Shown: positions 3,901-63,755 of the stretch, piece by piece
Layout of the letters: each line of letters opens with the position of its first letter
How positions within the stretch are numbered: position 1 is the first letter of the stretch
Notes under the pieces: generated by a model
Database searches by the model: none
What the model saw: the letters and a program-made list of their open reading frames with translations, nothing else
What the model was told of the DNA's origin: nothing
DNA from: Nemertoderma westbladi
Taxonomy: Eukaryota > Animalia > Xenacoelomorpha
NCBI GenBank assembly: GCA_032718475.1
Contig: JAUCBJ010000246.1
Span: forward strand, 1-64,000
Length of the DNA stretch: 64,000 nucleotides
Direction: 5' to 3'
Program-made: the position numbers and the translations under genes

Positions 3901-4045
3901 ACTTAGTATTCTATTGGTTATATCTCCATTATTCTAGAAAGTAATTATTTCCCATGGGAGATTTAAAATTGAAACAGTTATCATGTTTGAAAAACTGTCC
4001 CCGAATTTAGATTAACTGCATCAGCCGACCAAGAAAAGTCTGAAT

Positions 4046-5472: not shown

Positions 5473-5874
5473 GTACTTGGTCAAACGTACAGTAGTTATT
5501 TACTCTTAACTACTGTATTTACTAATTTGTCTGTTATGTCGGTTGTTTCTATAAAATGTAGTTGATATCGCTGATAATACTAATTGTTTATTTAAAATTA
5601 ATGAAATATTTGGTTTTCAAATGAAATACATTTTCAAAAGTACTTAGGGGGGAGTGGGGTACTGGGTTCCATATCTTGTGTTGAAATTTCAAATGTTTGT
5701 TTTTCAATTTTGTTTTTCATTTATTTTATTAAGAATTTATTTATTAGTACACTTTATCTCTTCTCTACCTTTCACAGCAGTATGCATTTAATATGTTGAC
5801 ATCGAACTCAGTACCACCCCCCCCCCCCCCCCCCCCACTCCACACCTTAAATGAGAATGAACTAGAACAAGCAT

Positions 5875-5958
5875 TAGTTTATGGTTTACACAAATTAGTT
5901 TATGGTTTACACAAATTAGTTTAAGGTTTACACAAATTAGTTTATGGTTTACACAAAT
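5875..5958. repeat. 21-bp minisatellite (TTAGTTTATGGTTTACACAAA) x4
   Basis: Directly visible tandem copies. Confidence 0.9.
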
Positions 5959-5959
5959 G

Positions 5960-7235: not shown

Positions 7236-7675
7236 TTCATCATTTCTGTAGATTATGAGTAGGCCTACCAGGTTATTGCAGTTTGCAGTAGTATTTCTAT
7301 TATTATTAATTCCAGTATAGTTTATTTTGAGTCTAACTACCGGTTTCTGTTACTTTCAGTAGGCCTCCTACATTAAGTTCAGTAATCCTATTAGGGTACA
7401 GTTTTATTAAGGTTGATCTGAACTAACCAAGCAATACCAACTACCAGTACGACAGACAAAAATAGGACGTTCATTCGTTCACTCACGGGGATCAGTTCTT
7501 ATAACAACCAGACCACATCGGTACTCTACCTAGCCAGCACTGCAGTGTTGCAGTTGTCTTAAGTGTCGTTATTATATGCATTTTGGGGTTTAAACAAAAT
7601 AAACATTTATATTTAAATGTCCCTCGAGAAGAATTATATTCTAGAATAATGGCAAAATAACCAATAGAATACCAA

Positions 7676-7950
7676 GTAAAAAATATTTTATTACGCGTAA
7701 AAAAATCATTTATTACGCGTAAAAAAATCATTTATTACACATAAAAAAATATTTTATTATGCGTAAAAAAAATCATTTATTATGCGTAAAAAAATCATTT
7801 ATTACGCGTAAAAAAATCCTTTATTACACATAAAAAAATATTTTATTACGCGTAAAAAAACAATTTATTACGCATAAAAAAATCGTTTATTTAGACGTAA
7901 AAAAATATTTTTTTACACGTAAAAAATCATTTATTATGTGTAAAAAATTG
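7676..7950. repeat. Right-end ~22-bp tandem array, inverted relative to 3690-3900
   Basis: AAAAAAATCATTTATTACGCGT units, directly visible. Confidence 0.95.
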
Positions 7951-8615
7951 CTTTTTTGAGGTGAAAATATTAACGAATAAAAACACCAAATGTATGCCAT
8001 AGACCTGAAATTGATTTGTAATTCACAGTATACTCATCCGGAACGGCTGGGTAAGTGAAACCAATTTCCCCATGAAATGTGATATGTTTTCGCAGAAATC
8101 GCAAGGTGAAGTCCTGAGAATCTACTTTATCCTCTGCAGATACAATATTGCCAACACAATAGAATTTTCGGCCCTCCTCCGGCTGAAATTCGACCAAAGC
8201 AAATCTTCCTGGAACATTTTCCGGAACATCTCAGGACTCCAAATAACAGTTTCATCAAATTCGACCACAGTTTCATTACATTCATTATCATCAATATAGT
8301 TAACATCCACCTCACCATTAACTAAAATTGATTTGATGGCGATCGGTTTCTCATTATTACCACCAACAACAGAGCTGTTATAGTGGCTAAACTGATAAAA
8401 CTTAATCTCACTTGGTGCGAAAACAACCTGATGTACTTTCAATGTATTCTTAATTGGGCGACAAGACGAGAAATCGACCTTCTCCTGAAACTCCTGGACG
8501 GCTTCCTGATCAATATACTCTATTTCGATGTTCAGGCTCTCTAAGTTAGATGCAAAATTTGCAAAATTTTTGGCACTATCAATTACAACTAAATCACTGA
8601 CCACTCGACGGTAAA

Positions 8616-24250: not shown

Positions 24251-27200
24251 AACGATGTGAATGAGAACATTGCTGTAAAAGATTTCGAAAAAAGTGTTAC
24301 TTTTTCTTGCACTCCCTTGCTCTATGTCCACTCATTACAAAACGCGAGCAGATATTATTGCTCAACGCATAATCTATCTGATCTTGCCTAGGTAGCGCCT
24401 GCCAGTACCTGCAGTTCATGGTTTGATGAAGCGCATTTGCGTGTAGCTGGCATTTGCTCTTTGGGTCGTAGCCCTCTTTATACAGTGCATTGCGTATCGC
24501 AGTTGCGTTCGTACCAAAGTCCCTACTATTCTTATTGTTTGGATTCAGCCTACTGGACGTACTGGGGTTATGTTTATTCGTGCTGTTATTGTTCCCCTGT
24601 CCGTTCCATGGTGTTGTCTCATCTTCGGCTAGCTGTGGACTTGCAGTCCCCTGCGTCGCTGCATATGGCAATGATTGCCTGAGTCTTGGTAATGCGTTTG
24701 ATGTATTGTGCTCTGGTTTCGGTCTATGGTAATCCGTCTTCGGTCCCTTTCCCAGGCTATCTTCGCTGTAGACTGGGTCAGTTATTAGCTCAGCCTCGTA
24801 GTTTAAGAAGTTTGACATTTCTTCTAAACCCGGTTCCGCACCCTTCTTGTCTCGAGTGGAGAAAGCAATTTTCCTCCACTTGTTGCGCATCCAACTCGGT
24901 AGTGCCTGCGCTATCGTGGTGATGTTATTGGACGCATTGAGCTCGTATGGCGCGTCTAGCGTCTTCAGCACGATCAGTGCCTTTTCGACTTTGTTAGCGA
25001 ACGTCTTAATGCTAACGGGATTATCCTGTAGGCCAACCGATGTTATGCCCCTCAGCGTCTGCCTGATGATCTTGGCCGGGTGCCCGTATTCCCTATCCAG
25101 TGCCCGCCATGCTGTCGTGAAGCCGCCCTCTATTCCTTGATATTGCCTCACGATATCGTATGCTGGGCCTCCCGTATATACTTGCAGATACTTTAGGCAC
25201 TCCGCCTGCGTCAAGTTTTTTGTTAGTATTTCGTTACTATACATGCGCCGAAACTGTAGATATTCTTCCGGCCTACTCCCATCGAATTTGAATGGTTCCA
25301 CGGGTGGTAGCTCGATCCTCGTTTTCAACGCATCGATCAACGTGGCCATCCCCATCGCCTGCGCTTCCAATGGATTCGACGGGTGCTGTATAGTTTCTCC
25401 TGTCTGGTGCGGTTCGTCCGTCCTACTTCTTGATCTTCTCTGACTTGGGTATGTCATCGGGGGTAGCGGCCCCCTCCATATTTCTGTGTCACACGACCTG
25501 TTTTCATCTAAGGGTCTCGTTGTTCTTGCTCCTATCGGGGTATATTGTTGATATTGTGATGGGGGAATGTCACCCTGTCCCCCCCCCCCGCCGGTATGTT
25601 TGGTACTGGAGTTGATGTTAATATATTGGGGCCCATACACCTATCCGCAATAATTCCCCCCTCCCCTGGGTATATGTTATGTCCCTGCATGCTGTAGTCA
25701 TACTGCTGTACTGGTACTGGTATAGGCCTATCAGCTTCTGGCCTACTCGCCGGTATGTATTCCGCGACTTCCGGGTTTAATCCCGTTGTCCACGCTATCC
25801 TATCGCCTACATTGCCTCTCTCAGTATGGCCTATGGTATGTGCAGTAAGGCCTATAGTATGTCCTACAGTCTGCATGTGTCGCTCGGGATCGAAGTTTAT
25901 TCTTCTCGAGTAGTCCTCCCCGCGGCTACCGTATTCTCGATCGGTAGGTATATTCCGTCGGAAAGTTTCTCTTCGACCCCCCTCTCTACTGTTCTCATCT
26001 TCGTACCGGTACATCGCGTACCCCTCTCTCGGCGCGTAGTGCACCTCACCGGGTCTCATCTCTCCAGGGCGACGGCAATCTCCCGGAGTCCAACCCCACT
26101 GACTCTCCGTTCTCATCTCGACTACCGACGGCTCGCTATCCGTCCTCGCTCCTCTACCGTTCGCGGCGATACCTCTACTACTGTCTTCTCTTCTTCTCCT
26201 TTCAGTGGAATATTCCCGTTCGTGAGATCTCTCGTCGACCTCCCGGTTAAACCCCACTGTTCTTCTTCCCTCTTCTGATCGGGCTCGACGCTTCGTCCGC
26301 CCTCTTACGACGTCAACCTGTCTCTCTCTGCTCGGTCGCACGCCGCTGGGGATACTCGCAATCCCCCTATTACTTTCCGTCGCCGGTTGTTGCGGTTTAC
26401 CTATTTCGGCCCTCGCATTATCCGCTGATGGCTGTGGGACACTCTCTGCCCCCCCCCCCCCTTTCGCCGCTAACTCGCTGTTGTGGGGCTCTCGTAGCCC
26501 CCCCCCCCCCCCCCCCCACTCGCCACATCTAACTTCGCTATCCCTCACCCCGCTACTATATCCCTCTCTAGTCGACACATCAACCCTACCGCGGTCGGGT
26601 CTATTTACCCCCGCCTCTCCCTCTGCTATTGCGTGGCCTACCAGGCCCTCTGCACCCTGCCTACCAACTATGTGGCCTACCAGGCCCTCGCTGGGTCTAT
26701 TCAACCCAGCCACCCCCTGCCTACCAACTACGTGGCCTACCAGGCCCTCGCTCGGTCTACCTAACCCAGCTACTCCCTGCCTACCAACTACATGGCCTAC
26801 CAGGCCCTCGTCTGTCTGGCCATACACGCCCGACGTGTTTACGTTAATAGCACCCATATCGGAAACGGAACCAATTTGTTCGTTCGAAACAAACTCATTT
26901 GAATTACTTTGCGCGACTACACCATCTGAATTATTTTGTAAATTCGGGCTCGGATCATTATTTAAGTTATTTGGAATATTTTGTGTAATTGCGTTACTTA
27001 AATTATTTTGTAAGTTCGAATTTGGGTTATTACTTTGATTATTTGGATTATTTTGCGTAGCTACATTAATATTAGAATTATTTTCTACATTAATATTAGG
27101 ATTGTTCTGATTTAAATTTAAATTACTACCACTAGGTAAATTATTTCCTGCAATAAAGGTTTGATTAGAATTATCCCATACGGTACTATTAATATTAACC

Positions 27201-28011
27201 ACGTCTACTGTACCATTATCATTATTACCCCCCCCCCCCCCCGCCCGTACGGTCACACCAGTTTTGGGTCTGTCGTGCGGTCCCTGTGAGTGGGGTATTA
27301 ATAAATGTATCCACGGCCCCTGGCTCCCCTAGAATACTCGAGCCAGTCCCGCTCTCAGACGCCCCCGCCCGCACCCTTTGCAACTCGTGCGCGCGTCTAA
27401 TCCTATGTTCCGAAAGCTCACTTTGGCGTCTCTCTAATTCCTTCTGCTCTCGCTCAGCTTCTGCCATTCTCCTCTCACACTCCCGCGCGTCCTGGCCAGC
27501 CAACTCTGCTACTCTCCTAGCGCTCTCCCTTCGTCTCGCTTCACGCTCTCTGCGTTCACTTTCCTCCCTCGCCTCACGTTTCTCGCGTTCCGCCTCATGT
27601 TCCTTTCGTTCACTTTCCTCCCTCGCCTCACGTTTCTCGCGTTCCGCCTCACGTTCCTTTCGTTCACTTTCCCACTTCGCCTCACGCTCCTTGCGTTCAC
27701 TTTTCTCTCTCACCTCACGTTTCTCGCGTTCACTTTTCTCTCTCACCACACGCTCCTCTTGTTCCTTCAACTCTATTTCATCATACTCCCTAAGGCTTCT
27801 CAAAGCCCTTTCGGCCTTCTCTCCGGTTTCTCTAATCAATGGCGCTTCCCTCTCTAGCCGCATTCTCCCCTCCTCTAGCCGTTTATCCATTTCCCTCTGA
27901 CCTTGCTCTATCAGCTCGAGACGGTACGCGGCACCTGCCTCTCTCACCAGTCTTTCTTTCGCGGAGGATGTAGCAGACTTATCGGTCACGACGGACTCCC
28001 TTCGCCTCCCC

Positions 28012-28550
28012 TGTGACGGGATCCGAGAGTATCCCGGTTTATCCGGTGTTGTTTCGTACGCGTCCCCGCCGTGTGAATGAAAGAAAAGAGTTTGTCGTTC
28101 TTCCAGTGTTATTGATAATATGTATATGAGATAGACGGAGTAATGCAGTAATGATAGCACAGTATACCGGTAGTGATATGGTAGTATATATTGGTGACGG
28201 CGGTGATGGTCTTAACTGTCACCGTTCTGCCTGACTGTACTGAGATGACTGAATGGGTATTGCATCGACCGGTAATATATATTGCACGGTGGCCTTATAA
28301 CTCTACCTAGCCGATGCCTTCCCCCCATTGGCTAATATCCCTGTTGGCACCCTTTGGAGTGTTTCCCTTCACTCCTTGTGTTCTCTCTCGGTTAGGGGTT
28401 TGGCCCCTGACCCTCCATTGTGTGTTTCTCCTTCCCTTCCCACTTTATTGGGGTGACACGAGGTTGATATTGGTAATCAACCTCGTGCTCCCAATATTGC
28501 TTAATGGCTCACTCTATGGGTTTGTGTTAGCGGAATTGGATAAGCTAACA
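28012..28550 (-). repeat. 3' LTR of the inner element
   Basis: Matches 35114-35652, with one mismatch seen (28030 T vs 35132 G). Confidence 0.97.
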
Positions 28551-28590
28551 CTCCCCCCCATGCTATCTTCCCGGTAAGAAGATAGCATCC
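28551..28590 (-). other. Polypurine tract preceded by a perfect hairpin
   Basis: Minus strand ATGCTATCTTC-TTACCGG-GAAGATAGCAT-GGGGGGGAG|TGTTAGC. Confidence 0.88.
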
Positions 28591-29164
28591 AACTAAAGTG
28601 CGCTACAATTCCGCTGGAACTCGATCTATTATCGGGTGTGGGGTGGGGTTATTTTCTTGGAGTCGGCTTTCCAGGCCGCTCCCTATGGGTATGATGTCAC
28701 TACCCTCTGGCGTCTCGTGTCGGGCCGATCGTGCGCTTCTCTCACACAATTTTTGTTTCCCCAACACTCTCGCCACTCTAACTTCGCTCTCTAACTCAAC
28801 TCGCTCTCTCCCCACTCTTACACTCTCCCCACACCTGAATCGCACTCTAACTTCTCGCCAACAGCTCTTCTCACTATCTCCTCTCTACTCTCTGCCACTC
28901 CCTAAGGCCCTAATCTCTAATGCTACCCCTGTGCTATCATACTATCTACCTTATCTAAGGTCTAACTTGCTAACTATCTAACTCTCTAACTCTACTAACT
29001 CTAACTCTACTACTCTACTCTACTCTCTGCTAACTCTTACTACTTCTAGCTCTAACTAAAAGCCTCTAACTTTCTACTAACTCTAACTAGAACTCTCTAA
29101 CTTTCTGCTAAGTCTACTAACTCTTTTCTAACTCTGACTAAAATCCTCCAACTAACTCTATCTC

Positions 29165-29790
29165 TATCTACGTGGCGCTAATGGTGCCCACAACCACAAC
29201 CGGTACTACGTACCCTCTTACTAACTCTACCTCCATCTACGTGGCGCTAACGGTGCCCACAACCACAACCGGTACTACGTACCCTCTTACTAACTCTACC
29301 TCCATCTACGTGGCGCTAACGGTGCCCACAACCACTCTGCTACTGCTTCTACTCTGCTACTATCTTTCTAACTCTACTAACTCTCTACTATCTCTAACTC
29401 TACTAGCTGGCACCCTATGTGCCCTCTCTACTACTCTACTCTCTGGCACCCTATGTGCCCTCTCTACTACTCTACTCTATCTACATCTCCACCTCAACTA
29501 ATACCTCTATCTACGTGGCGCTTCCGGTGCCCACAACCACTCTCTGCTACTACTTTCTACGTGGCGCTTCCGGTGCCCACAACCACTCTCTTACTACTTT
29601 CTACGTGGCGCTTCCGGTGCCCACAACCTCTCTCTTACTACTACTTTCTACGTGGCGCTTCCGGTGCCCACAACCCCTCTCTTACTACTTCTACGTGGCG
29701 CTTCCGGTGCCCACAACCACTCTCTACTACTACTTTCTACGTGGCGCTTCCGGTGCCCACAACCCCTCTCTTACTACTACTTTCTACTAA
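29165..29790. repeat. Tandem array in the 3' non-coding region (core ACGTGGCGC-N5-GTGCCCACAA; 59-bp and ~42-46-bp units)
   Basis: About 9 copies, directly visible. Confidence 0.92.
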
Positions 29791-30396
29791 CTATTATTTT
29801 TAATTATTTAATTATTTATTATTGTTTATTTAAATTAAATAATTATTTTTGTGGGAAGGGCGTCTCGCCCTCATTCCCACCCCCCTCAGTCCAAAATATT
29901 GGACGACTAAACCTCTTAACTAGGGCGATTCTTCCAACAGGCACTCTCCCACTGCTGCTCTTGTAGGTCCTGTAGGATTCGCCGCACTCTCTTCGCCAAT
30001 TCCATCTCACCAGGAATTGGTTCTCCCTCTTCTGCCACCCTGAAATCGGGTCTCTCCGCCGCCTTCTTAACTAGCTCGTCTCCTGGCATCAAAATGCCAC
30101 CTCCCTCCTTGTTGTCTCCCGCCGGCAGAATGAATAGAAAGTGAAAGAACAGGCAAAACAGGAGGTACAACACCAGTCCTACCCCTCTCCATCCTGCCTT
30201 CCTTCTCGACTTCCCCCTTGTCGGTATGCCTCTAAACCGGACCGGCATCTCTTCCGGACACTCCTCTAGACACTCCTCCAGACACTCCTCTGGAGTGTTG
30301 TCCTCCGGACACCTCGCCGTCCGCTCCGCTCCATCTCCATACCGATGCTTGCTGGGAAACCTACTCTCCTCTGCCCACTTTCTTACTGTCACCTCC

Positions 30397-33300
30397 CTAT
30401 CTGGCTCTACTATCTCCTGTTTCTCCTCTTCGTCCTCTGCGTCTGCGGTGCCTGGTATCATGCACCCAGATGTCTCTGTCACACTGCATGGGATGTTGAG
30501 TTTTAACTGGGCCGCTAAGCGTCCATCCGAACGGCGTGAGGATCGCCGTCGGGTCCCGCTGCCTGTCTTCGCCGAAGACCGTCTTCGTTCTCTCGTGGGC
30601 CGTCGGGCAGTCCATCCCTACTATAATGGACACCTTCCTAACGTCCACCTTTGGTATTGAGAAATCGATACCGTCCAGGAATCTATATTGCTCGACCTCA
30701 ATGTTGGTTGGTCGCCTGGCGTTGATGTTTATCGATTCTATGACGTGGATGGGGTCGATCGTCGCCCCATAGTCATATCCCGGTGCAATCGCTGCTATCC
30801 TGCACCGCCCCGCCCTCGTCTCCAGGACCTCATCTTTACTCGAGACGGTAGTCACCGCCATTCTATTCGGCCTTGTCTTTAGCCCTATCTCTTCGGCCAC
30901 CCAGTTCTCCACCAGCGTGAAGGCTGCTCCGCTGTCGACCAGCATTAATGTCGTTACTGATCGACCGCCCTCTCCTGATATCTTTACTGGTACTACCCCG
31001 AGTAGTACTTTTCTCTTCTTCTCCTCTTCTGTCGTGCTTGTGGCCATTGCCTGGCCTCCAGTCTCGGACTCTCTAACTGCTGTTTCTCTACACTCTCCGG
31101 ATCTGTGTCCTTCTACCACACATCGATGACATAGTCCGTTTGCGTCTGTGTAGGCTATACGATCTTGTTTGGGCAACGCTTGCCAGTGCTTACAACTCCT
31201 GGTCTTATGTGTTCCATCCCGATGTAATTGACATTCGAATCCTGGATTATAGCGTTCCCTGTATAGTCCCTCACGTATCGCGCCTAGGTTTATATGTACC
31301 GATTTAGTGTTTTGGTTGTCTGTATTCGGCCTACTGGGTACATTGGGATTATGTTTATTTATGGTGTTATTTTCTTTCTGTCCCTGCCACGGTGTGGCCC
31401 TGCTACCAGCTAACTGTGGACTAGCAGTCCCCTGTGTGGCCGCATGTGGTAGTGATTGTCCTACTCTCGGGAATGGATCTGCAGGATCGTGTTCGGGTTC
31501 ATGGCTTGTCCCCAAACTATCCTCGCTATAGACTGGGTCTGTTATTAATTCGGCTTCATAGTTGAGGAAGCTCGACATCTCTTCTAAGCCCGGTTCCGCA
31601 CCCTTCTTCTCCCGTGTGGAGAAGGCTATCTTCCTCCACTTCCTTCGTAACCAGATCGGCAGTGCCTGCGCTATCGTGGTGATGTTGTTAGACGCGTTGA
31701 GTTCGTATGGTGCGTCTAGCGTCTTTAACACGATTAACGCCTTCTCGACCTTGTTTGCAAAGGTCCTTATGCTAACGGGATTGTCCTGTAGGCCACCCGA
31801 TGTTATGCCTCTCAGGGTTTGCCGGATGATCTTGGCCGGGTGCCCGTATTCCCTATCTAGCGCCCGCCATGCTGTCGTGAAGCCGCCCTCGATGCCCTGG
31901 TATTGCCTCACGATGTCGTATGCTGGGCCTCCTGTATATACTTGCAGATATTTTAGGCACTCCGCCTGCGTCAAGTTCTTACTTAATATTTCGTTACTAT
32001 ACATGCGCCGAAACTGTAGATATTCTTCCGGCCTACTCCCATCGAATTTAAATGGTTCCACAGGTGGTAACTCGATCCTAGTTTTTAACGCATCGATCAA
32101 TGTGGCCATTCCCATCGCTTGCGCTTCTAATGGGTTCGATGGATGTTGTATAGTTTCTCCTGTTGGGTGCGGTCCGTCCGTCCTATCTGTTGTTGTCCTT
32201 GTTGCGTCGGATATATCATTGGGGGTAACGGCCCCCTCCATATTTCCGTGTCGCATGATCTGTTCTCGTCCAAGGGGTTCGATGTTCTCGCTCCTATTGG
32301 GGTATATTGTTGATATTGTGATGGGGGAATGTCACCCTGTCCCCCTCCCACCGGTATGTTTGGTACTGGGGTTGATGTTAATATATTGGGGCCCATACAT
32401 CTATCTGCAATAATTCCCCCCTCCCCTGGATATATGTTGTGTCCCTGGAAATTATAGTCATGCTGCTGTACCGGTACCGATATAGGCCTATTCACTTCTT
32501 GCCTACCTACCGGTATGTACTCCGCGACTTCCGGGTTTAATCCCGTCGTCCGCGCTACCCTATCGCCTACTCTATCTCTCCCAGCATGGCCTATAATAGT
32601 ATGTGCAGTAAGGCCTACAGTATGTCCTGCAGTCTGCATGTGCCCTTCCGAACCGAAGTTTATTCTTCGCGAATCTCGAATCTCCCCGCGACTACCGTAC
32701 TCTCGATCGGCAGCTATATCACGTCGGGAAGTTTCCCTTCGATCCCCTATCCTGCTCTCGTCTTCGTATCGGTACGTCCTGTACCCCTCTCTTGGTGTGC
32801 GGTGCGTTTCTCCGGGGCGACGGCAATCTCCCGAAGTTCGACCCCACTGACTCCCTACCTCCATCTCTACTATCGACGGCTCGCTATCCGTCCTCGCTCT
32901 CCGGTTGCTCCTAGCAACGACTCTTCTACTATCTTCCTTTCTTCTCTCTTCGACCTCTCGGTTAAACTCTGCTAATCTTCTTCTATCTTCGACCTCTCTA
33001 TTAAACTCTACTAATCTTCTCTCTTCTGACTGGGCTCGACGTTCCGTCGCCCGCCCTCTCGCGACGTCAACCTGTCTCTCTCTGCTCGATCGCACGCCGC
33101 TGGGGATACTCGCAATCCCCCTATTACTCTCCGTCGCCGGGTGTTGCGGTTTACCTAATTCGGCCCGCGCATTATCCGCCGACGCCTGTGGGACACTCTC
33201 TGCCCCCCCCTCTCTCGCTACTAATCTCTCGCGGTGGGGTGCCCGTAGCCCCCCCCCACCCGCCACTTCTAACTTCACTATCTCTTACTACACTTCTGCG

Positions 33301-35051: not shown

Positions 35052-35113
35052 CTTCGTCTTCTGTGTTCTGTCTGTGTCTGGCAGTTACAGTTCGGCAGGC
35101 CTAGAGTTAAGAC

Positions 35114-35652
35114 TGTGACGGGATCCGAGAGGATCCCGGTTTATCCGGTGTTGTTTCGTACGCGTCCCCGCCGTGTGAATGAAAGAAAAGAGTTTGTCGT
35201 TCTTCCAGTGTTATTGATAATATGTATATGAGATAGACGGAGTAATGCAGTAATGATAGCACAGTATACCGGTAGTGATATGGTAGTATATATTGGTGAC
35301 GGCGGTGATGGTCTTAACTGTCACCGTTCTGCCTGACTGTACTGAGATGACTGAATGGGTATTGCATCGACCGGTAATATATATTGCACGGTGGCCTTAT
35401 AACTCTACCTAGCCGATGCCTTCCCCCCATTGGCTAATATCCCTGTTGGCACCCTTTGGAGTGTTTCCCTTCACTCCTTGTGTTCTCTCTCGGTTAGGGG
35501 TTTGGCCCCTGACCCTCCATTGTGTGTTTCTCCTTCCCTTCCCACTTTATTGGGGTGACACGAGGTTGATATTGGTAATCAACCTCGTGCTCCCAATATT
35601 GCTTAATGGCTCACTCTATGGGTTTGTGTTAGCGGAATTGGATAAGCTAACA
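35114..35652 (-). repeat. 5' LTR of the inner element
   Basis: TG..CA ends. On the minus strand: CCAAT, TATA-like (35376-35383) and TCAGT initiator (~35352) at canonical spacing. U5 terminal hairpin CGGGATCC-N4-GGATCCCG. Confidence 0.97.
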
Positions 35653-36433
35653 TCCCCGTCCTACTAACTTTCCCCCGCTTCCCGGAACTTCCTCCGACCG
35701 ACGAGGCCGAATCCTCGGGGTTAACCTCGGATTCGCCCCCTTCAGGTCTGTTCCAACCCACTAATTTTATACCCCGGGCATCGACCAAGTATGGCCCTAT
35801 GTACACTGACGCTACGCTAGGTTCCATACTCCCACATTCCCATAGTTCGAACAGTTCACTGGCAACCCCTTTCGCTCTCTCCTCGGCTAGTTCTCTCTGC
35901 CCGAAGCGCATCAGATAATATAAATGTCTGTCCGACTTACCTAGTCCTGACTTTAGTTTTACCTCGTCTATCGTCTTCCCCTTTCTGGCCTCGTCTAGTA
36001 GTCTCCGGGTCGCGTTGTAGGCCCGTCGAAGTCGCTCAGAAACCCCGACGTCCTCGTCGCCGACCTCTCGTCCGTCTCTCCGGGTTTGACGTCGTACCGG
36101 CGGACCCACCGTCGCCGTTTCGGTGGCCCGTTCGTCGCCCTCGGCCTGTGGCTGGCCGGCGACACCAGTGCGTCGACCCCCGTCCCGTGTCGACTCGTCT
36201 CCGTTCCAGGCCCCCCTCGTCCTGAACTGCCGGATGACCCGTTACCGATGGGTCCGGCGTTGTGGGCCTGTATCGCCTGGTTGTGGCCTCGCGGATCGTT
36301 AGCTCTTCGTCCGGGGTCCGCGTCGGTGTTATCTCTCCCGACTGACTCATCTCGGTTGGTGATCGGTGGAGTTCAGCTAGCTAGGGCAGCAGTTGTTGCA
36401 GTTTAACTAGGGCAGCAGCTCGGTTTTAGTTAC

Positions 36434-36972
36434 TGTGACGGGATCCAAGAGGGATCCCGGTTTATCCGTTGTTAGTTTACGCGTCCCCGCCGTGTATAAA
36501 GAGTGAATGAGTTTGTACTGTCCGTCGTATATAATATTTAGGTATACAGATATAGATATAGATGTGAGATAATATTGTTGTATATGGAAGGCGGGATACG
36601 GTAACTAAAGTCCCGGTCCTTCCCTAGCTAAACTATGTAACCTAAACTAGCACCAGTATTGCACTGAGATAACTGAATTGATATGATTACTGCCAAGTGG
36701 CTATATTGCACGGTTGGCCTTGTTACTCTACCTAATCGATGCCTTTCCCCCCTCTGATTGGTTGATACCCTTGTTGGCGCCCTTTGGAGTGTTCCCGTTC
36801 ACTCCACCTGTTCTCTCTGGGTTAGGGGTTTGGCCCCTGACCCTCATTGTGTGCTTCTCCTTCCCATTCTTATTGGGATGGCACGAGTTGGTTAATTACC
36901 CAATCTCGTGGCTCCCAATATTGCTTATCGGCTTAACTTTATGGGGTGTTAGCGGGATTGAATAAGCTAACA
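36434..36972 (-). repeat. 5' LTR of the outer element (diverged homologue of the inner LTR)
   Basis: Same termini (TGTGACGGGATCC...TAAGCTAACA) and same 539-bp length, diverged middle. Confidence 0.95.
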
Positions 36973-45141: not shown

Positions 45142-46386
45142 TGTAAAAGCTTTTGTGGGATAACTGATACGTTTGCCTTTGCTGGCCAGTTCCCCCCAGG
45201 CGCTGGAATACTCTAAAAAGGTTTTCTAACTGTATATAGATTCCCCTCGCCCGCAAGGTACCTTTACAGGTGTTTTAACGGACATAAAAATCATTCTGCT
45301 ATATACGTGTTTTGGCGGACATGGTAAGGCAAAAAACCTGTAATGCACCAACTACCTTTCACAGCTTAGCCGTGATAATTCATATTACGACATCTAACAG
45401 CTGGTTGCTGACATGGAAACAGCCATTGGATGTATGGTTCTTTGTTTGGCTTGAGCCAATCAGAGCGATTTTTCCTGTCGACGTGTAGCTTTTAGTCGAT
45501 CATAAGGAGAGTGTTCAGTCTTAAAGTTTCTTACTTGATACTTTGTTGTTATTGCTGTCTAAGCCAGAAACACCGGCCTTTCGGTAAGAACTCTAGTAAA
45601 CTGCTTGAATTATCGAGAGTATAAACTGTTACCTTAACGAATCGAACCTTAACGCATCTTAACATACTTACTTAATTTAATTGCATTAATCATATTGTTT
45701 GTACTGTTATTTTACCGTCAGTTATTAATTGTACCTATTTGTTGATGGAAATATTGCTCTTTGGATAATACGGATAAATCACCCAAATTCCCAATTTTCT
45801 TGATACACTACAGGTTAGAGAGACCGGTTATACATAACAATTGCGATTTATATTAATGTGGTGTGTATTGAATCCAATGTTATTTAGCAGACCCTACGTG
45901 AGTCAATTACTGCTCTCTTTATGTGTGATCAAATATACTGACTGTCGGCAGAATAGTGTGTATGATCGTGATTGGTAACAAAGTATTTCCTAAAGAATAC
46001 GCTTTATACTTTAATCATAAGCAGTATCGTTGCGTTTTAGTATAAGTCTTAGTTCTGTTTAAATAGATAAAGTGCCACGTCCTAAAGGAACTGTTAATAT
46101 TTCCCGAAAGCCAATAATATCTGTCAGAGATTAATTTATTAACGATCTATCGAATGGTATAGTAGGTATACACTGCAACCTTACACTGCAATAATAAAAT
46201 TCAAGCATCCGAATTCAGCCTCCCGGGTGTAGATCCATCGGGTGAATGATCGCGCATGGGCTGCCTTCGGCTAATGTTTTGCGTATTAGCATAAAATATT
46301 GTCGTATGCTAAAGTGGTTTTAATTAACTAAAAGACATATAAATTTTGGCAGGTTAAACTGCTAAAGGTCTTCAAAAGCGCGAACA
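45142..46386 (+). repeat. 5' LTR
   Basis: Matches 62511-63755, two substitutions noticed. CCAAT box near 45456 and TCAGT initiator-like motif at 45515-45519. Confidence 0.97.
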
Positions 46387-46399
46387 GTAACAGTTTATA
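46387..46399 (+). other. Non-tRNA PBS-position sequence complementary to own LTR 45620-45632
   Basis: GTAACAGTTTATA vs TATAAACTGTTAC, 13/13 complementary. No TGG after the LTR. Confidence 0.8.
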
Positions 46400-48567: not shown

Positions 48568-51500
48568 ATGTCTGACACTCAGCAAAACCTGTCGGACAGT
48601 CTGATCGATACAACTATCTGTGATTCAGATAGGAGTGTGGAGCGAATAAGAAAGGAGTTCGGCTCACCTCCTACTGTAAAAAAGGTCATCCCTCCAGTAG
48701 TATCAGACCCTAGGCTAGTCCACCATAGGTCCATCATAGGCACTAGGGCACAGGTAAAACGGGACCAAGAGGCAGTTGTCTTATCGCAGCAACATCTTGG
48801 TCAAGAACCTACTTCCCAGCGACCCGATAGCTCCAGCAGTTCGGATACTGTAGAGCTGACTCCCGAACATGGAGTGCAGATGTCTGATACAGTCTACTCG
48901 GACCCCCTTCTTACTCTTCCTGCTGCAGTGCTAACTACTATATTCATTGCGGTGGAGGAACATCAAGCCGACTGGGCGAAGAATAAGCGAGCGACCCAAG
49001 ATAATTACGCGGGATACGCCAGGGAAGAATTGATATCTATTGTTGAATCACAATGGAACTTTCCCGGACTCGGACTTCCGTTGGATATGTCCGAGGCTAC
49101 TTGGGAAGAGCTACACAGGATGGGAGTGGCTAAAGATACAATGGATCCAGCTGTTTGGAAGAGGTCGGCAGCAGGATATGTGCAGGGATTCTTCGGATCC
49201 TTAGAGCGATTGGAAGAACAACTGTTTCGACAACCTCACGGACCTCAAGAGCAGGAAGAGCTGCTATACCAAGTACGCGAAAGAACCCTACGCATTCGAC
49301 TAATCCTCTCAGCCTTTGAGGAAACTTCCAAAAGAAGACAGGACACTTCGCTGCAGGTTGCTGTCAAAACTTGGCTACATCGGGTAGATCTCAAAGTACA
49401 GGAAACAGCCCCGTGGAAATCCCAGCTGGCTGAGAGATCAACCTATGAAGAACCAACTGATGTCACCGAACCAACTGATGTCACCCGTGCTCAAGAGGAA
49501 AGCGAAGAGGCCGCCGAGAAACCGCGAACTAGAGACGCTATCGACATTTATTTGTCCGACTATCAGCGATTCCTAGGAGACGAAGAGTTGAGGAGACGGC
49601 TGTCTGGACTTTCCCCTAATAGTGAAGGAACCAAGCTTGTGTTGGACTCAATCGATGCCGAAATGTTAGCTGCAAACCAAGCTGAATGTGATGAAAAACT
49701 CCGCCTCACTAGAGTCCGAGAAGAACAAATAAAGAAAAGAAGGATAGAGGAACAAAAAACGGCGGCTATGGCGGCGGCTATAGCAGATGCAGAAGCAGAA
49801 AGTAAAGCAGCAAAGGCGGTGGCAAAGGCAGATGCAGAAGCAGAAAGGAAGGCAGCGGCTGCAGATGCAGAAGCAGAAAGAAAGGCAGCGGCTGCAGATG
49901 CAGAAGCGGAAGAAAAAGCAGCAAAGGCGGTGGCAAAGGCAGAAGCAGAAGCAGAAATGAGAGCATTTGAGCAGACTGCTCAACTGGAGTTGGAGAATCT
50001 GCAAGAGACACAAGACAGTATAACTAAACAGTTTACTGCTAATCAAATGCAGATGATGAGAAAATCTACTCCCAAGCGCCAGGGGTACACATCCTCGGAG
50101 GAAGGCGATACTACCGACCCTGAAGGCGGAGGAAATAGATCCCATCTAAGTAGACGTAGAAAAACATATTACCGTCGCAAATTGCCTGATTTGCCCCCAG
50201 CTGTTAAAAGACAGCTAACTAGCACAGATTTAGGTAGTGCAGAACCCATGGAACAATTTATCCAGGTCAAAAGACTCCCTACTATAGTCGATGAACCTGA
50301 AATAATTAGGCCTGTAGTTCCCAAAGTCACTTCTGTGCTAGAGACCCCTACACTTCCAGAGCTTAACTCTAAATTCCCTTTACATAGCACTACACTGCCT
50401 GTACCCGGTGGAACAGTCCATGCAAATACCCCTGTCCAGATAGCAGAGAGAGAAATCAATAATTTGTCTCCCGTCGTCCCGCGTCAGCCCGCTACTATGT
50501 TGGCGACTCCCGCTTCGGCGGTTGAGTGGGTGGAAGAGGGACGGCGGGGGATGAATCTTCTGCTAGGACAGATGCAGGAGACTGTCCACCAACTTAAGGG
50601 AACAGTGAGGGAAGGTAGAGCAGAGTTGCAAGAAGTGCAGCAAAGTATCGCGCTAGAACGCGACAAATTAGTCAATATACAAAAAGGCATACCAATGCCT
50701 CCTGTAACATTGTGTCAACCCGTTAGGTCTGAAGTATTACATGCGCAAGGTGTGGAGCCTACACGCATCTATACTGCTAGTGAAGTTGAAACTCCTATAG
50801 CAAACCCTATTAAGGGTGATTATAGACCTGTTATTAATGATATTCCCTATAAACCTGATAATGATCCGAGAAATTTATATACCGATAATTCGATATTAAA
50901 TAACACGATGGCCCAAGAAAGCTTTACGCGTCAGATGGCTAGAACAGAAGCCCGCCAAGCGGTCAAAGTGGGAGAGATCGTCAAATTCAATGGAGATGAG
51001 ATGAAATGGTTACCTTTCAACGAATATTACAAAGATAGCATACAGAACTCTGTACTATCTAACGGAGAGAAACTTAGATTCCTCATCAAGTGCTTGGAAG
51101 GACCTCCCAAGTTAATGGCGTTAAAGTTTATTGGACATCCAGAAGGATTAAGACAAGTTTGGGATACATTAAACATCAGGTATGGTAACAAAGATAACAT
51201 AGCTAAGTATTTGTATACAAAGTTAGTAGCCCCCCGACACTTCCTTAGTAGTGGGATTATAGAGTTTTCCGATGAAATACAAGAGATCTGTAGACAACTG
51301 GACTGGTTAGGTAAGTCGCACGAATACCAGAGTTCCATGGTTATTGGAGCCGTAGTCTCTACTTTACCAAAGGGTGGAGTATGTACACGCTGGGACAAGA
51401 AAGTGTTGTACATGAATGAACAACAACGACGAAGTCCTACCATGGCTGATCTCATGTCTTTCTTAGATGGTTAAGTCAAATTACAACTCATCAAGCAGTC

Positions 51501-54500
51501 CAGAGAGAAAACATCGGAAAATAAGGTAAGTGAGAAACCTACTTCTAGGAGAAGAGTAACACCGGTGTGTTACACTGACGACGGCGAAAGCCAAGCTTCC
51601 CAAGAAGAGGACAGCGGGAAAGATACAGACAGATCGTATTATGTTGACAAAACCTCCAAGGACGTAAGTAAATACAAAGCTCGAACCAATAATAGGAGAG
51701 AACAAGTTACTAAGACCCCTCCTCAGTCTCCTAACAGAATGCGCGGAAGAAAGCCCGAAGAAAGAACGAGAGTGCATCAGACTACCCAGGGTAAAGTAAG
51801 TAACATAAAACCTAACTGTGCGCTGTGTGACGGGACCCACCGTTTGAGTGCGTGTGCGGAATTTCTAAAGAAATCCCTTGTAGACAGACGTACAGTTGTG
51901 TGGGACAAGCGGTTATGTTATAATTGCCTCAGACCAGGACACCAACGGCGAACCTGTTACTCCGACATAAAGTGTGAAAAGTGTGGTGCGAAACATCACA
52001 TCTTGTTACATAGTGAGTTCGAACGAGACAAGCCGAGTCAGGTAAGTGAGTCCGAACTACATGTCCAATTCAGTGATGTAAACGACACTGATCAGGAGTC
52101 TGAGATGGAGGGATTTTATACTGACGAATTCTCCGACGTCAATGAATCCTGTTATCTAATAAACACCACGGTGTATCGAGCACTTACTTACGAAAAGGAT
52201 ATCAGCGAGGAGTTTCCCCCTACTACTTTTACCAAACAATCATCTTGGAAAGCTCCTACTTCCAATGTAGGAATCAGAGAATTTCCTGTAGTTCAGGTAA
52301 GAGTTCATGGTATTAACAAAAGCTACATAGTGAACGCCCTACTTGACTCAGGCAGCACAGGAACATTCATAGATCAAGAGCTAGCCGAAGATATCTTTGC
52401 TGGACAACCCAAGTTCCGGACTAAATTGAATATGTCAGGAATTATGCAGGTTTGGAAATCTACCCTGACGGCAGATTACTATGTAGGTGAGTTGTCCACC
52501 CCCCAGGATAAGTTAGGAACACAAGGTGTAAGGTCAGTAAAAATGGTGGCTATAAAGAACTTTGCTACTACTCAAGCAGACCTTTATAATTGGGACGAAG
52601 ATGAGAGCGTCCAACATCTTAAGATACCTCGATTCCAGACAGATTATCCTGGAGTGCAAATACTTATCGGCCAAAACGCGCACGAGGCGCTCGAAACATT
52701 AGAGAAACGGCCTGCTCAACCACAGCCACTGCAAACTTATGCGGTAAGAACTAGAGTAGGTTGGTACTTTACTGGCCCTTCCCGTAGAACTTTAGAAGAA
52801 AGAATGCCACACGAACAAATAGATCAGGTAAGTGATTGGGAAGAGGAAAACAGCGAAGTGGACGAACCAACTGAGGGAACCCCATACTCCTCAGATAATG
52901 ACGACATCTACCAACTCTTCGAAGAAGAGAAGACAATTGACCTACTTACCGAAAACCAAACTTGGAAAAACCAAACGAACCTATGTCAATTGATTCGCCC
53001 AACGGAACCCACTATTTATAATGACGAACTTAATGACGAGGTAGAGCGCTACAACGCTAGAACTCGGGACGAACTCGCCGTACGATTCTTTACCCAAGAA
53101 TTGGTAGAACCCAATTCATACGACAAAGCCCTGTCGATAGAAGAAGAAAGAGCCAAGCAAATCCAGGAAACAACCACACGTTTTTTAAAAGATCAAGGTA
53201 GATATGAAATCGGACTACCCTTCCGAAAACGTGAACCCAGATTTATAAATAACAGACCCTTGGCTGAGAAAAGAATCAATCAATTACATCGACGTCTGAC
53301 GGCAAACGCTTCAGCTAAGGAAATGTACCAGACTCAGTTGAAGAAATTTATCACAAAGGGATATGCGGAGCGAGTACCGGAAGGAACTCCCATAACTGAA
53401 AGGACTTATTATCTAACACATCATTATGTTCCCAAACCCGGTAAACCCCATGAAGTACGGGTTGTATTTGATGGCTCCGCCCTATATATGGGCCAATCCC
53501 TTAATTCCGAGTTGTTACCAGGACCCAACTTGCTCCAATCTTTGTTGGGGATACTGTTGAGATTAAGACAATATTCCATCGCGTTCGCCTCCGATATAGA
53601 AGGAATGTTCCTACAAGTCAAGGCGTTGGATCGTGATAGAGACAGCCTAAGATTCCTGTGGTGGCCTGAAGGAGATCTCAACCAGACAATTTAAAGTCCC
53701 TTCCATCAGTAAAGGAAGCCATTGATGTCGCGAAAGGGATGGTTGAGTGTTTGAAAAGAGGTGGATTTCGGTTGACGAAGTTCACCAGCAACTCCCGTGA
53801 GTTTCTGGAAGCAATATCTGTAGAAGACCGGGGGTCAAAAGATCTCGACTTAATACATGATGATCTTCCGGAAACCAAGACACTTGGCTTGAAGTGGGAC
53901 ACAGAAAGAGACATCCTGTTTTTTCAGTTAAAACAGCGAGATAATCCAGTTCGGACCAAACGGATTTGTTTAAGTATTCTGAGCACTTATTTCGATCCCT
54001 TGGGATTTATTAGCCCAGTTATATTGATTGCTCGGAGTTTAGTACAACAAATGTGGCTGGAAAACCACTCGTGGGACGATCCACTCAAGGGAGAACTATT
54101 AAAGAAATGGATGAAATGGGAGGATTCGCTACCTGCCATCGAGAACTTTATAATTTCCTGTTCATATTTTGGTCATGTTCTCCCTACGTATTCCTATCAA
54201 CTCCATGTATTTGGAGATGCCAGCGATATGGGGATCGGTATCGTAGCATATCTGCGAGTCGAAACTCCGGATGGAATCAAAGTTGCCTTGGTTACCTCTA
54301 AGGCATTGATTAACAACAAGCTTAAGGTTCCTCGAGCGGAGTTAAAAGCAGCATTATACGCTACCGCTATCGGACGGAATGTAACAGAACAGATCGATTA
54401 TCCACTGGAGAAAACCGTTTATTGGACCGACGCTTTACTTGTATTGGAATATATAACGAATGAAGTCTGTCAGTTCAGCGTCTTTGTTACTAACAGAGTG

Positions 54501-56561
54501 GCCATTATTCTTAGTCGCACAACGATAGATCAATGGAGACATTGCCCTGGTACGATTAACCCAGCTGACATCGCCTCCAGAGGAGCAACTCCACAGGAAC
54601 TGATAGATACCCCTGACTGGTTGGGTGGACCCGACTTCTTGAGCAAGGAAGAGGATGAATGGCCTCCTCACCTTACTACGGCTGAGATTAGACAAGCCAA
54701 GGGAGCGGAGAAAGTCAAACCCAAAATTCGGACAAGTAAATCGAAGTTATTTAAACCTACAATCGACCTATCTGTACTACATACTGCCGAGAACGATACT
54801 TCGGATCCACAATCCCTCACCACAAACAAATCTGTTGTGGAAATTAGAGATAGAAATTGGAAATCTGAGATACCAGACGTCTCGCAAGGAATCTCACCCC
54901 TGCTGCAGAGAGCACTGCATCATTACAGTTCCTGGAATCGTCTCTGTAAAGCTATCACATACTTAAAGAGATGTTTTCACCATCATTACTCCAGGAAGAA
55001 AACCACTAGTGATCCTGCTCCGGTAACATCTGCGCAAGTTCATGTTATTAAAGATCTACCTAAGTACAAGATATCAGACCGGTTTCTAAAGGAGAAGATC
55101 AGCTACCAGGAGCATGAAGAAACTAATAAGCAGATACTGAGACTATTGCAATGCTATGAGGATTCCGATAGGTATTTTCTGCTATTAAGAAATCCGCAGA
55201 TGCGCTTAAGGGATCGCTTCTCTAGCACAATGATAGATGGGTTAATACGCGTTGGAGGAAGACTTACCAACGCTCCATTATCTTTTGATACTAAATTCCC
55301 TATACTCATTAGTAATCTTGAAGTACAAATCAAGATGATTGTAGATGTTCACAGTAAACTGTATCATGCTGGTAGAGAACGAGTTCTTAGCGAGATTCGA
55401 ACCCGCTATTATTTTCATAAACCACGTAGAGCTCTGAATCAAGTTCTTAGGAACTGCATACCTTGTAGGAAAGTATTCAGTAGGCCTTTAACACAGCGAG
55501 AGGCAGAATTACCTAGGGAACGAGTAAGCTTTTATGAACCACCCTTTACTAATACTGGTGTGGATTTATTTGGCCCTATTGAAGTATATCGTGCTAGAAC
55601 TATAATCAAGAGATGGTGTGTAATCTTTGTCTGCATGACTTGTAGAGCTATCCATCTCGATATGGTGAACGATCTATCTACTAACAGCTTCGTCTTATGT
55701 CTACGACGACAGATCGCTCGTTTCGGCACTAGCAATACGATGAGATCCGATAAGGGAACGAACTTCATTGGTGCCAACAACGAAATCCAGGCTTACGTAA
55801 AGGACTGGAATCAAAGACAGGTGGATGACCAGCTACGGATAACGGCGTCTAGCTGGACCTTTAACGCCGCCGACGCCCCTTGGTGGGGAGGAAGTTGGGA
55901 GAGATTGATTCGAAGTGTCAAGACCGCATTTCACTTTATAGTGCCGTGCCGCGCATATCTCACCGACGAACTTCTACGGACGTTAATGGAAGAAATCGCT
56001 GCCTATCTTAACGAGAGACCGCTTATGCCAGTCTCATCGAGTGTCGACTCCCTGGAAGCGCTAACACCCTCGCATTTCCTACTTAAGAAACCTGTAGCCA
56101 TGCTCCCAAAATCCGAGATTGCCGACGGAGATGAATACTGTCGTCGAACTTGGCAGCTTATGCAGTTGCTATCCCGTCGTTTCGCTGACCATTTTGAGAA
56201 ACATTATCTGCCCACGCTACAACTTCGAACTAAGTGGTTTGCGCAGCAGGAAAATGTCAGCGCCGGAGACATGGTCCTTATTGTAGATCCGGACCTCCCA
56301 CGTAGACGGTGGCAGATCGGTCGTATCATCGAGACGCACATCTCGGAGGATGGTCTAGTGCGCTCAGTAGAACTCGTCGTAATGCGGCGTAACTTCAAGA
56401 AACCCGGAATAATCTTTGAGACGCAACAACTCAATCGCCCAGTTGGTCGTTTATGTTTGCTGGAAAGAGACAGAGAACTCTCCGGAAACTATGGAAGACA
56501 AGACACTCTTCCCACGACCACCTCCCTAATACCTCAAACATCTAGGGACTCCCAAACGTGA
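48568..56561 (+). pseudogene. Bel/Pao gag-pol polyprotein with an in-frame stop (51472-51474) and a deleted RT catalytic core (~53690)
   Basis: KFNGD..F..LRFLIKCLEG..YG capsid. Three knuckles CALC..H..C, CYNC..GH..C, CEKC..HH..LH. LLDSGS protease. YYLTHH..VRVVFDGS..SLNSELLPGP..DIEGMF..LRFLW. No YVDD. KTLGLKW, FDPLG, HVFGDAS, PRAEL, WTDA, NPADIASRG. Integrase GVDLFGP, SDKGTNF, GGSWERL. Confidence 0.95.
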
Positions 56562-57370: not shown

Positions 57371-58178
57371 ATGTCAATTTAATATCAAATAATAAAATTC
57401 ACGGGAATAAATTTAAATTCATATTCAAATGAATTTCATAAATTGTCATTTTGTGCAATTTACAACATTCCCAAAATTCCAGTAATTAATAGATCATGGG
57501 AGCGGAGATTCATATTGAGTGTACTAGAGTGTGAGAATCTCCAACATATAGTCAATAGCCAATAAAATTTATAAAATCATGCATAAAGAAGATATTGACA
57601 ATTAAAGAATTACTATTAAATAACATCCCAGATCTGTATACATGAGAATTGCCCTAATTCTACCGCTAGTTTTCCATAATGTCACCATGGCAACACCCAC
57701 GCTAGAATTAGAAGCAAATTAAAGGAACAATAAAAGCTTGCCCCATTGCGTAGCATAAGAGTATACATAGCGCTATTAGTATCCAAGGATACATAGTAAT
57801 AACGTGACATTCTGGAAGACACTGACTAACGGACAAATGGCATGCGTGTGTGCAGTAAGTAATGATTGTATGGAATTTGTGCGTTTGTAGGTGAATGTTA
57901 CTACTAAAGTGTGTTTACCGTAGCTAATCGCAATTGTAAAATAGCCCTAACTCTACCGAGATAACCTCAAGTGGATTCAAGCCTTTGGGACGGACAGTGG
58001 TGGGACTTGTGCCGGTTATCGTTGTCGTGCTGTTGCTACATGTTGGCGTAAACACTGCGACAGCGGTACATCGGCGCTGAGAAACCCACTGTCCAGGGGC
58101 AAAAAGCCTAATAGGCAGCGACGCCCGCTTGCCTAAAATATTAATTTATATTGATATTAACAAACTCAGATAGCAGAT

Positions 58179-62510: not shown

Positions 62511-63755
62511 TGTAAAAGCTTTTGTGGGATAACTGATACGTTTGCCTTTGCTGGCCAGTTCCCCCCAGGCGCTGGAATACTCTAAAAAGGTTTTCTAACT
62601 GTATATAGATTCCCCTCGCCCGCAAGGTACCTTTACAGGTGTTTTAACGGACATAAAAATCATTCTGCTATATACGTGTTTTGGCGGACATGGTAAGGCA
62701 AAAAACCTGTAATGCACCAACTACCTTTCACAGCTTAGCCGTGATAATTCATATTACGACATCTAACAGCTGGTTGCTGACATGGAAACAGCCATTGGAT
62801 GTATGGTTCTTTGTTTGGCTTGAGCCAATCAGAGCGATTTTTCCTGTCGACGTGTAGCTTTTAGTCGATCATAAGGAGAGTGTTCAGTCTTACAGTTTCT
62901 TACTTGATACTTTGTTGTTATTGCTGTCTAAGCCAGAAACACCGGCCTTTCGGTAAGAACTCTAGTAAACTGCTTGAATTATCGAGAGTATAAACTGTTA
63001 CCTTAACGAATCGAACCTTAACGCATCTTAACATACTTACTTAATTTAATTGCATTAATCATATTGTTTGTACTGTTATTTTACCGTCAGTTATTAATTG
63101 TACCTATTTGTTGATGGAAATATTGCTCTTTGGATAATACGGATAAATCACCCAAATTCCCAATTTTCTTGATACACTACAGGTTAGAGAGACCGGTTAT
63201 ACATAACAATTGCGATTTATATTAATGTGGTGTGTATTGAATCCAATGTTATTTAGCAGACCCTACGTGAGTCAATTACTGCTCTCTTTATGTGTGATCA
63301 AATATACTGACTGTCGGCAGAATAGTGTGTATGATCGTGATTGGTAACAAAGTATTTCCTAAAGAATACGCTTTATACTTTAATCATAAGCAGTATCGTT
63401 GCGTTTTAGTATAAGTCTTAGTTCTGTTTAAATAGATAAAGCGCCACGTCCTAAAGGAACTGTTAATATTTCCCGAAAGCCAATAATATCTGTCAGAGAT
63501 TAATTTATTAACGATCTATCGAATGGTATAGTAGGTATACACTGCAACCTTACACTGCAATAATAAAATTCAAGCATCCGAATTCAGCCTCCCGGGTGTA
63601 GATCCATCGGGTGAATGATCGCGCATGGGCTGCCTTCGGCTAATGTTTTGCGTATTAGCATAAAATATTGTCGTATGCTAAAGTGGTTTTAATTAACTAA
63701 AAGACATATAAATTTTGGCAGGTTAAACTGCTAAAGGTCTTCAAAAGCGCGAACA
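62511..63755 (+). repeat. 3' LTR
   Basis: Copy of 45142-46386, followed by TSD ATAAT. Confidence 0.97.

Follow-up and report, generated by a model that had tools for sequence, protein, structure and literature searches.

Complementarity between LTRs and primer-binding sites suggests self-primed reverse transcription in BEL/Pao retrotransposons of Nemertoderma westbladi

In the 2021 ICTV description, members of the Belpaoviridae have an 18-nt primer-binding site (PBS) for tRNA-Arg or tRNA-Gly and prime reverse transcription with a host tRNA (PMC8742986). Self-priming has been described for the gypsy groups Tf1/sushi and Tcn1 (PMC6317226, PMC4600332 and PMC5341516, in the parts of these papers that were available), and for the TAR lineage (Houba, Osr-1) of plant Ty1/copia elements it has been predicted from LTR/PBS complementarity (PMC6317226, available part). 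The elements described here lie in a stretch of 64 kb (positions 1 to 64,000 of contig JAUCBJ010000246.1; hereafter the window), and share with the Belpaoviridae their LTRs, the 5-bp target duplication, the polypurine tract, a DUF1759 gag, Peptidase_A17, DUF5641 and the order PR-RT-RH-IN, but are without the tRNA-type PBS that ICTV describes (PMC8742986). They resemble Tf1, Tf2 and Tj1, the Tf1/sushi group and Tcn1, as presented in the available parts of the sources above, in having no tRNA site, in that the bases after the LTR complement the element's own R region, and in that a cut must free the 3′ end of the primer. However, Tf1/sushi and Tcn1 belong to another superfamily, Ty3/gypsy, and the window's elements are known from sequence alone. 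The likeness to the TAR lineage lies in a prediction made purely from sequence, through LTR/PBS complementarity, but the TAR elements are copia elements of plants, and no intron-split primer is mentioned for them in the available part of the paper (PMC6317226). In fungal GalEa copia elements a self-pairing sequence beside the 5′ LTR, the Conserved Hairpin Site, likewise replaces the PBS; there the sequence is a conserved palindrome whose partner lies outside the LTR (PMC5445492, available part), whereas in the window's elements it is variable and tracks the LTR. We found no report of self-priming in BEL/Pao elements in the full-text literature searched, a body that takes in few subscription journals. 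The main texts of the Sinbad paper (PMC554778), a metazoan BEL/Pao survey (PMC3118150) and a mollusc survey (PMC6238403) mention neither PBS nor tRNA, and BEL/Pao self-priming is absent from the available parts of PMC3601003, PMC8220671, PMC3286476 and PMC5445492.

The minus strand of the window carries two nested BEL/Pao elements, the inner one inserted in the gag region of the outer one (Table 1). A single difference in 539 positions separates the paired LTRs of the inner element, which lies between the two copies of a 5-bp target duplication (28007-28011 and 35653-35657). Searches with tblastn, for which four full-length homologues and both pol frames of a third element (described below) served as queries, found no RT, RNase H or integrase in the inner element. 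The space before its 3′ LTR (28550-30400, minus strand) is filled with tandem repeats, in which it resembles non-autonomous Culex elements (PMC3286476, available part). By its sequence the inner element looks like a recently moved non-autonomous element, one that moved without an RT of its own, as the single LTR difference and the target duplication indicate, and kept its LTR/PBS match. For the outer element there is no 3′ LTR in the 64-kb window; the element breaks off inside gag at about 24297 (minus strand), without pol. The two elements share 77% identity over 370 aa in gag and 82% identity in the U3 parts of their LTRs. The family to which both belong has many copies, and sequence depth is much greater over U3 and the U5 end than over R, a pattern that fits many subfamilies differing in R. 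Two further elements lie elsewhere in the window. Positions 11 to about 2100 (plus strand) are the 3′ part of a fourth BEL/Pao element, in which tblastn shows RNase H-integrase followed by a purine tract; its PBS falls outside the window. At 3432-7957 a DNA-transposon-like element, with helix-turn-helix and rva_4 integrase frames at 4016-5351, lies between long inverted arrays of about 22-nt units.

Table 1 Features of the three BEL/Pao elements (positions are those of the window)
Element	Feature	Position	Strand	Remarks
Inner	5′ LTR	35114..35652	-	539 bp, TG..CA ends
Inner	3′ LTR	28012..28550	-	paired with inner 5′ LTR
Inner	gag-protease frame	30397..32331	-	DUF1759, aspartyl protease
Inner	PBS position	35105..35113	-	9 nt, GTCTTAACT, offset 0 from 5′ LTR
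Inner	candidate self-primer core	35311..35319	-	AGTTAAGAC, exact complement of inner PBS; ends AC before C
Inner	initiator-like TCAGT pair	35343..35352	-	A at 35352 and 35343, predicted start; conserved in outer LTR
Inner	hairpin of the earlier note	35303..35326	-	alternative fold, not above chance
Inner	segment 5′ of core	35329..35344	-	predicted pairing with leader 35098-35082; begins at second TCAGT
Inner	leader arm of extended helix	35082..35098	-	from folding and shuffles
Inner	U5 motif	35161..35176	-	identical in inner and outer LTR; putative pairing just 3′ of core, weak
Inner	8-bp U5 hairpin	35119..35138	-	ends 5 nt before PBS; common to inner and outer LTR
Outer	5′ LTR	36434..36972	-	539 bp
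Outer	gag frame	24297..25640	-	DUF1759
Outer	PBS position	36425..36433	-	9 nt, GTAACTAAA, offset 0 from 5′ LTR
Outer	candidate self-primer core	36601..36609	-	TTTAGTTAC, exact complement of outer PBS; ends AC before C
Outer	segment 5′ of core	36622..36634	-	13 nt, complement (one G-U) to leader 36412-36400
Outer	leader arm of extended helix	36400..36412	-	from folding and shuffles
Third	5′ LTR	45142..46386	+	1245 bp
Third	3′ LTR	62511..63755	+	2 differences in 1245 from 5′ LTR; 5-bp target duplication
Third	candidate self-primer core	45620..45632	+	13 nt, ends AC before C
Third	PBS position	46387..46399	+	13 nt, offset 0
Third	pol region	51475..56561	+	two frames: protease, part of RT, Peptidase_A17, integrase, DUF5641

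An earlier note on this DNA had pointed to a 9-nt complementarity between each PBS position and a segment of the same element's LTR, and the letters and coordinates of both pairs are as it gave them. TGG is absent from the 40 nt after either LTR, which confirms that neither element has a TGG-type tRNA PBS. The perfect complement of each 9-mer occurs a single time in its own LTR, and cross-tests against the neighbour's LTR reach just 3 and 4 nt, so that each 9-mer does fit its own LTR only; the two 9-mers differ at 6 of 9 positions, not at 5 as had been counted. The proposal that the partners had changed together holds in that each fits its own partner, but no count of paired compensatory changes is possible because R cannot be aligned column by column between the two LTRs. 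With dinucleotide shuffles we obtained a match in 9 of 5000 (inner) and 5 of 5000 (outer); inside the elements a 9-nt complement is reached at 17 of 6541 and 13 of 3680 positions, respectively. Across the window, 47 of 7325 CA positions have a 9-nt complement within the 539 nt upstream, and 2 of these 47 also start with GT and end before C, which is the count expected from the inner and outer sites alone. Both cores end in AC followed by C and have the right polarity for minus-strand priming, as the note had observed, and the same is true of the third element. At the outer PBS no alternative letter reaches 3% among contigs aligned to the outer leader (with 36536-36628 skipped as repeats), and the 64-kb window contains no tRNA genes or Rfam matches.

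The third element, a distant one on the plus strand, extends these observations. Its LTR/PBS match of 13 nt is equalled in 0 of 200 shuffles, and there is no TGG within 40 nt of its LTR. All three complete 5′ LTRs of the window thus show a match at offset 0, to their own LTR and with the AC|C end. Profile matches in this element comprise DUF1759, Peptidase_A17 (2e-35), an integrase zinc finger and DUF5641; its best homologues are 33-34% identical, the named ones among the matches listed coming from coral and molluscs, and PF05380 is present in all but one of the 60 homologues listed, 53 of the 60 being judged by the precomputed Pfam column alone. At about 53690 (plus strand) the middle of RT is missing, including the catalytic motif present in homologues, and there is a stop in gag-pol, although the two LTRs are identical apart from 2 of 1245 positions. 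An extra open frame of 1423 aa (58161-62432, plus strand) separates pol from the 3′ LTR and as a whole has no Pfam match; a piece of it weakly resembles the zinc knuckle PF13917 (E 0.0012, below the cut-off), and by eye its middle part may resemble a 3′-5′ exonuclease.

To place these matches we turned to public contigs, in which 102 BEL/Pao loci were collected (78 in metagenomes, 24 in prokaryote genome records). The final test comprised 14 families of the 102 loci, with LTR ends fixed by comparing the 5′ and 3′ LTRs of one locus or those of sibling loci, the rest being loci without a comparison-fixed LTR end or copies of a tested family. In 11 of the 12 families on the window's side of the tree described below, a perfect complement of 10-15 nt exists only across a GT..AG intron of the LTR (at most 2 of 200 shuffles in each), and the PBS site of these families thus matches the exon-exon junction of that intron. 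Because four of the 11 positive families share one primer, they represent 8 distinct primers. L029 gives 7 nt only (30 of 200 shuffles), and a 13th family, the LTR of which ends in TA, gives an 11-nt match as read from the printed sites. Match offsets in the relatives are 2-5, with L029 and L096 at 0. When the window's three elements are included, 15 of 15 segments have an A-pyrimidine end, and the next base is C in 14 of 15. No self-match is seen in the two families with a TGG-type PBS, L079 and L082 with its five siblings (85 and 160 of 200 shuffles). L030 and L096 have TGG at offset 1 in addition to their self-match, and so a tRNA may still serve as primer in these two.

Contiguous matches of 11 nt are found in L044, L047 and L061, with LTR ends picked by the match scan itself; the sisters L047 and L061 have 2 differing positions on both sides of the match. 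These three loci cluster with L063, in which the primer is intron-split, and the clade therefore mixes the two arrangements. The scan of 45 loci without fixed ends, which also yields chance matches of 9-12 nt in coding sequence, is to be taken as a lead only, and L062, with no match at a misplaced end and 11 nt at a scan-picked end, was dropped. In the third element a GTAAG splice donor is located at 45584 (plus strand), 36 nt ahead of the primer core. If this donor were joined to a later acceptor the primer would be spliced out, which could act as an off-switch; alternatively, the donor may be a relic of the relatives' intron. A spliced primer was rejected for the inner element, where a 10-nt match needs a donor far upstream of the predicted start, and for the third element, where a 16-nt match needs a GAG acceptor and shrinks to 8 nt under stricter sites. 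Priming by an RNA 3′ end was likewise set aside, the AATAAA of the third LTR lying 560 nt past the primer. We note that LTRs of the L082 family and of L064, L066 and L067 end in TA, not CA, and that the loci from prokaryote genome records (L079-L102) are animal-type BEL/Pao elements, several of them complete with LTRs and on contigs of up to 2.6 Mb, which are likely host contamination of metagenome-assembled genomes. Scans of viral contigs gave no relatives.

We compared the loci in a midpoint-rooted tree built on RNase H-integrase, with 27 rows (16 of the 102 loci, 10 of the 60 proteins and the third element). The third element groups with all 11 included self-matching loci on one side of a branch with SH-aLRT support of 99-100, and the two TGG-type families group with insect proteins on the other side. 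A 55-row FastTree agrees with this tree, and an RNase H-only tree of 118 rows does not resolve the third element. A single origin of the trait is at most possible, since the third element forms a long branch, the root is a midpoint root only, and the inner and outer elements have no pol by which to place them. As a lead only, the branch with coral and mollusc proteins fits the hosts of the Sinbad/Sailor lineage (PMC6238403).

With respect to classification, the inner and third elements have the TG..CA LTRs, target duplication and polypurine tract of BEL/Pao, and the outer element shows its 5′ LTR only. The gag and pol domains of BEL/Pao, in the order PR-RT-RH-IN, are found in the third element; the inner and outer elements have DUF1759 only, the inner one also a protease. 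None of the three has the 18-nt PBS for tRNA-Arg or tRNA-Gly of the ICTV description. By their proteins the three elements are BEL/Pao, and in priming they appear to depart from the family description. A pol of Ty3/gypsy type (chromovirus-related) is not present, the domains and homologues being those of BEL/Pao, and thus the elements would work in the manner of Tf1 self-priming but are no members of the Tf1/sushi group. A trait of that group, a PBS complementary to the element's own LTR, is found over 9, 9 and 13 nt; only the third element reaches the 10-nt self-priming rule of Neumann 2019, both 9-nt cores being one base short (PMC6317226, available part).

TCAGT motifs predict RNA starts at the A of 35352 or 35343 in the inner element, of 36674 or 36665 in the outer element and of 45517 in the third, and hence distances to the primer end of 33-42, 65-74 and about 116 nt; the 42 and 74 nt measured from the first TCAGT in the earlier note are correct. 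A TATA-like motif and the double TCAGT, both conserved, lie at the border between conserved U3 and divergent R, well upstream of the core, and with the start predicted here the primer would not lie at the extreme 5′ end of the RNA. It had also been proposed that the primer is presented in the loop of a hairpin with co-varying arms (CGGTGA/TCACCG in the inner and CGGGA/TCCCG in the outer element). The arms exist, but hairpins as good arise in 394 of 2000 shuffles for the inner and 52 of 2000 for the outer element, no such hairpin surrounds the core of the third element (1280 of 2000 shuffles as good), and in folding the hairpin competes with the primer:PBS helix, so that we find presentation in a loop unsupported. 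Modelling points instead to an extended helix as the better-supported structure, in which a segment 5′ of the core is paired to leader sequence 3′ of the PBS (4, 6 and 50 of 2000 shuffles for the inner, outer and third elements, in windows picked after the folds were seen). The helix 5′ of the core differs between the elements; that of the inner element starts at the second TCAGT, so that almost all of the first 33 nt of such an RNA would be paired. Of the 17 relatives scored, only 3 have an extended helix that is equalled in at most 1 of 300 shuffles, and the helix is thus not general. Pairing of the U5 motif with the bases 3′ of the core is matched by 147 and 45 of 2000 shuffles and has no counterpart in the third element. 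The bare 9-nt duplexes are weak (-9.5 and -7.3 kcal/mol). In the predicted ensemble the primer:PBS pairs have probabilities of 0.44 (inner), 0.84 (outer) and 0.96 (third); the outer value stays at 0.81 in 9 of 12 folding settings, and the inner value depends on the folded window, ranging from 0.00 to 0.93 over 12 settings, in 3 of which the competing hairpin wins.

Taken together, our analyses suggest that these elements prime reverse transcription with a segment of their own RNA and not with a tRNA, a reading to which we give a probability of about 0.78. Self-priming without a tRNA, as first put forward in the earlier note, is the best-supported reading in view of the third element, 11 of 12 related families and the two negative TGG-type controls. 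The further suggestion of an independent system is upheld relative to Tf1, which belongs to another superfamily, but the system is not private to the two nested elements. Self-priming would be a trait of a broad BEL/Pao branch in which the primer usually spans a splice junction, and the window's elements would be the intron-less form of that branch.

We envisage that the RNA would start at the TCAGT motifs and fold back so that the core pairs with the PBS, assisted in the inner and outer elements by the second helix with the leader. A cut after AC, made by the RNase H of RT by analogy with Tf1 and predicted to fall between 35311 and 35310 (inner), 36601 and 36600 (outer) and 45632 and 45633 (third), would place the 3′ end of the primer opposite the base that directly follows the LTR, and from there RT would copy U5 and the rest of R. 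Because only R downstream of the cut would be copied, R upstream of it would have to come from the 3′ LTR copy. Given a start at TCAGT, priming would be from a capped fragment of 33-116 nt, of which only the 3′ portion lies in the core duplex, and the inner element, having no RT, would depend on a helper enzyme acting in trans for both cutting and copying. The correct polarity, the exact register and the common end motif at the point where the cut must fall all fit the logic of self-priming known from other elements. In retroviruses, plus-strand synthesis copies the tRNA primer. The Tf1 self-primer is said, in the title of Atwood-Moore 2006, not to be removed. If plus-strand synthesis copies the primer here too, the PBS would be rewritten in each cycle; primer and PBS would then change together without two separate mutations, and the fact that the PBS of relatives reads as a copy of an exon-exon junction would be explained. 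The degenerate second helix could be an old, longer copy of the primer. The account in its full form, which we hold tentatively and at somewhat less than even odds, is that an animal branch of BEL/Pao dropped tRNA priming; that RT cuts at an internal AY|C, the long capped 5′ fragment primes and the PBS is rewritten as its cDNA; and that in most members the primer arises by splicing of an LTR intron, so that host splicing acts as a switch on replication, from which the three intron-less elements of the window have escaped.

One version of self-priming, which takes up about a third of the probability given above, is the plain geometry of Tf1, with the RNA starting at, or trimmed to, the 5′ end of the core and a primer of 9-13 nt. 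The start site used above is a prediction, Tf1 primes with its first 11 bases (PMC7175516, available part), Tf2 has alternative starts (PMC5341516, available part), and a start at 35319 gives an inner pairing probability of 0.92-0.93 in 2 of 3 settings. We nevertheless doubt this version. The core is well downstream of the conserved TATA-like motif and double TCAGT, the sequence 5′ of it forms a helix with the leader that is different in each element, and a start at 36609 lowers the outer pairing to 0.08-0.27. An unlikely alternative to self-priming is that the helix is a leader structure, involved in packaging, dimerisation or a translation switch, and that a host RNA such as a tRNA half acts as the primer. 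Half-tRNA priming without TGG does occur in copia lineages (PMC6317226, available part), fungal GalEa elements carry, where a PBS would be, a hairpin with a role that is unknown (PMC5445492, available part), and competing folds exist here. Yet the three PBS sequences differ and each has a match in its own LTR, so each element would need its own host RNA together with an accidental match; a leader structure, moreover, requires neither the exact register with the LTR edge nor the common AY|C end, and it leaves unexplained a match that exists only after splicing.

Less probable still is a primer supplied in trans by element RNA, in the form of a short fragment derived from a different copy, from a solo LTR or from the second of the packaged RNAs. 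Copies of the family are numerous, and cis and trans would look the same in sequence, but a fold in cis is feasible, and linkage in cis is favoured because each PBS fits its own LTR and not that of its 82%-identical neighbour. Chance or an assembly artefact we consider very improbable. A 9-mer complement by itself is no rarity, as the CA sites of the window show, but all three elements have the match, one of them over 13 nt, as do 11 of 12 relatives. With regard to assembly, a contig of sequencing run X4, from a different study, spans the joint of outer LTR and PBS, differing in 3 letters of 160, and another contig covers the inner primer with 1 other letter in 233; the match is therefore no assembly slip. 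Self-priming from the element's own RNA accordingly remains the reading that we prefer.

Within the literature searched, self-priming in BEL/Pao would be new, having been described only for other groups of retrotransposons. If our reading is true, annotation tools that demand a tRNA PBS undercount such elements. There is a silencing pathway in which tRNA fragments target the PBS, and self-primed elements should ignore silencing of this kind. An internal cut site and a spliced primer would represent new chemistry and a new form of control for an RT of the retroviral type. A third LTR superfamily, the one confined to animals, would then join those with self-primed elements, against the ICTV description of these elements as tRNA-primed.
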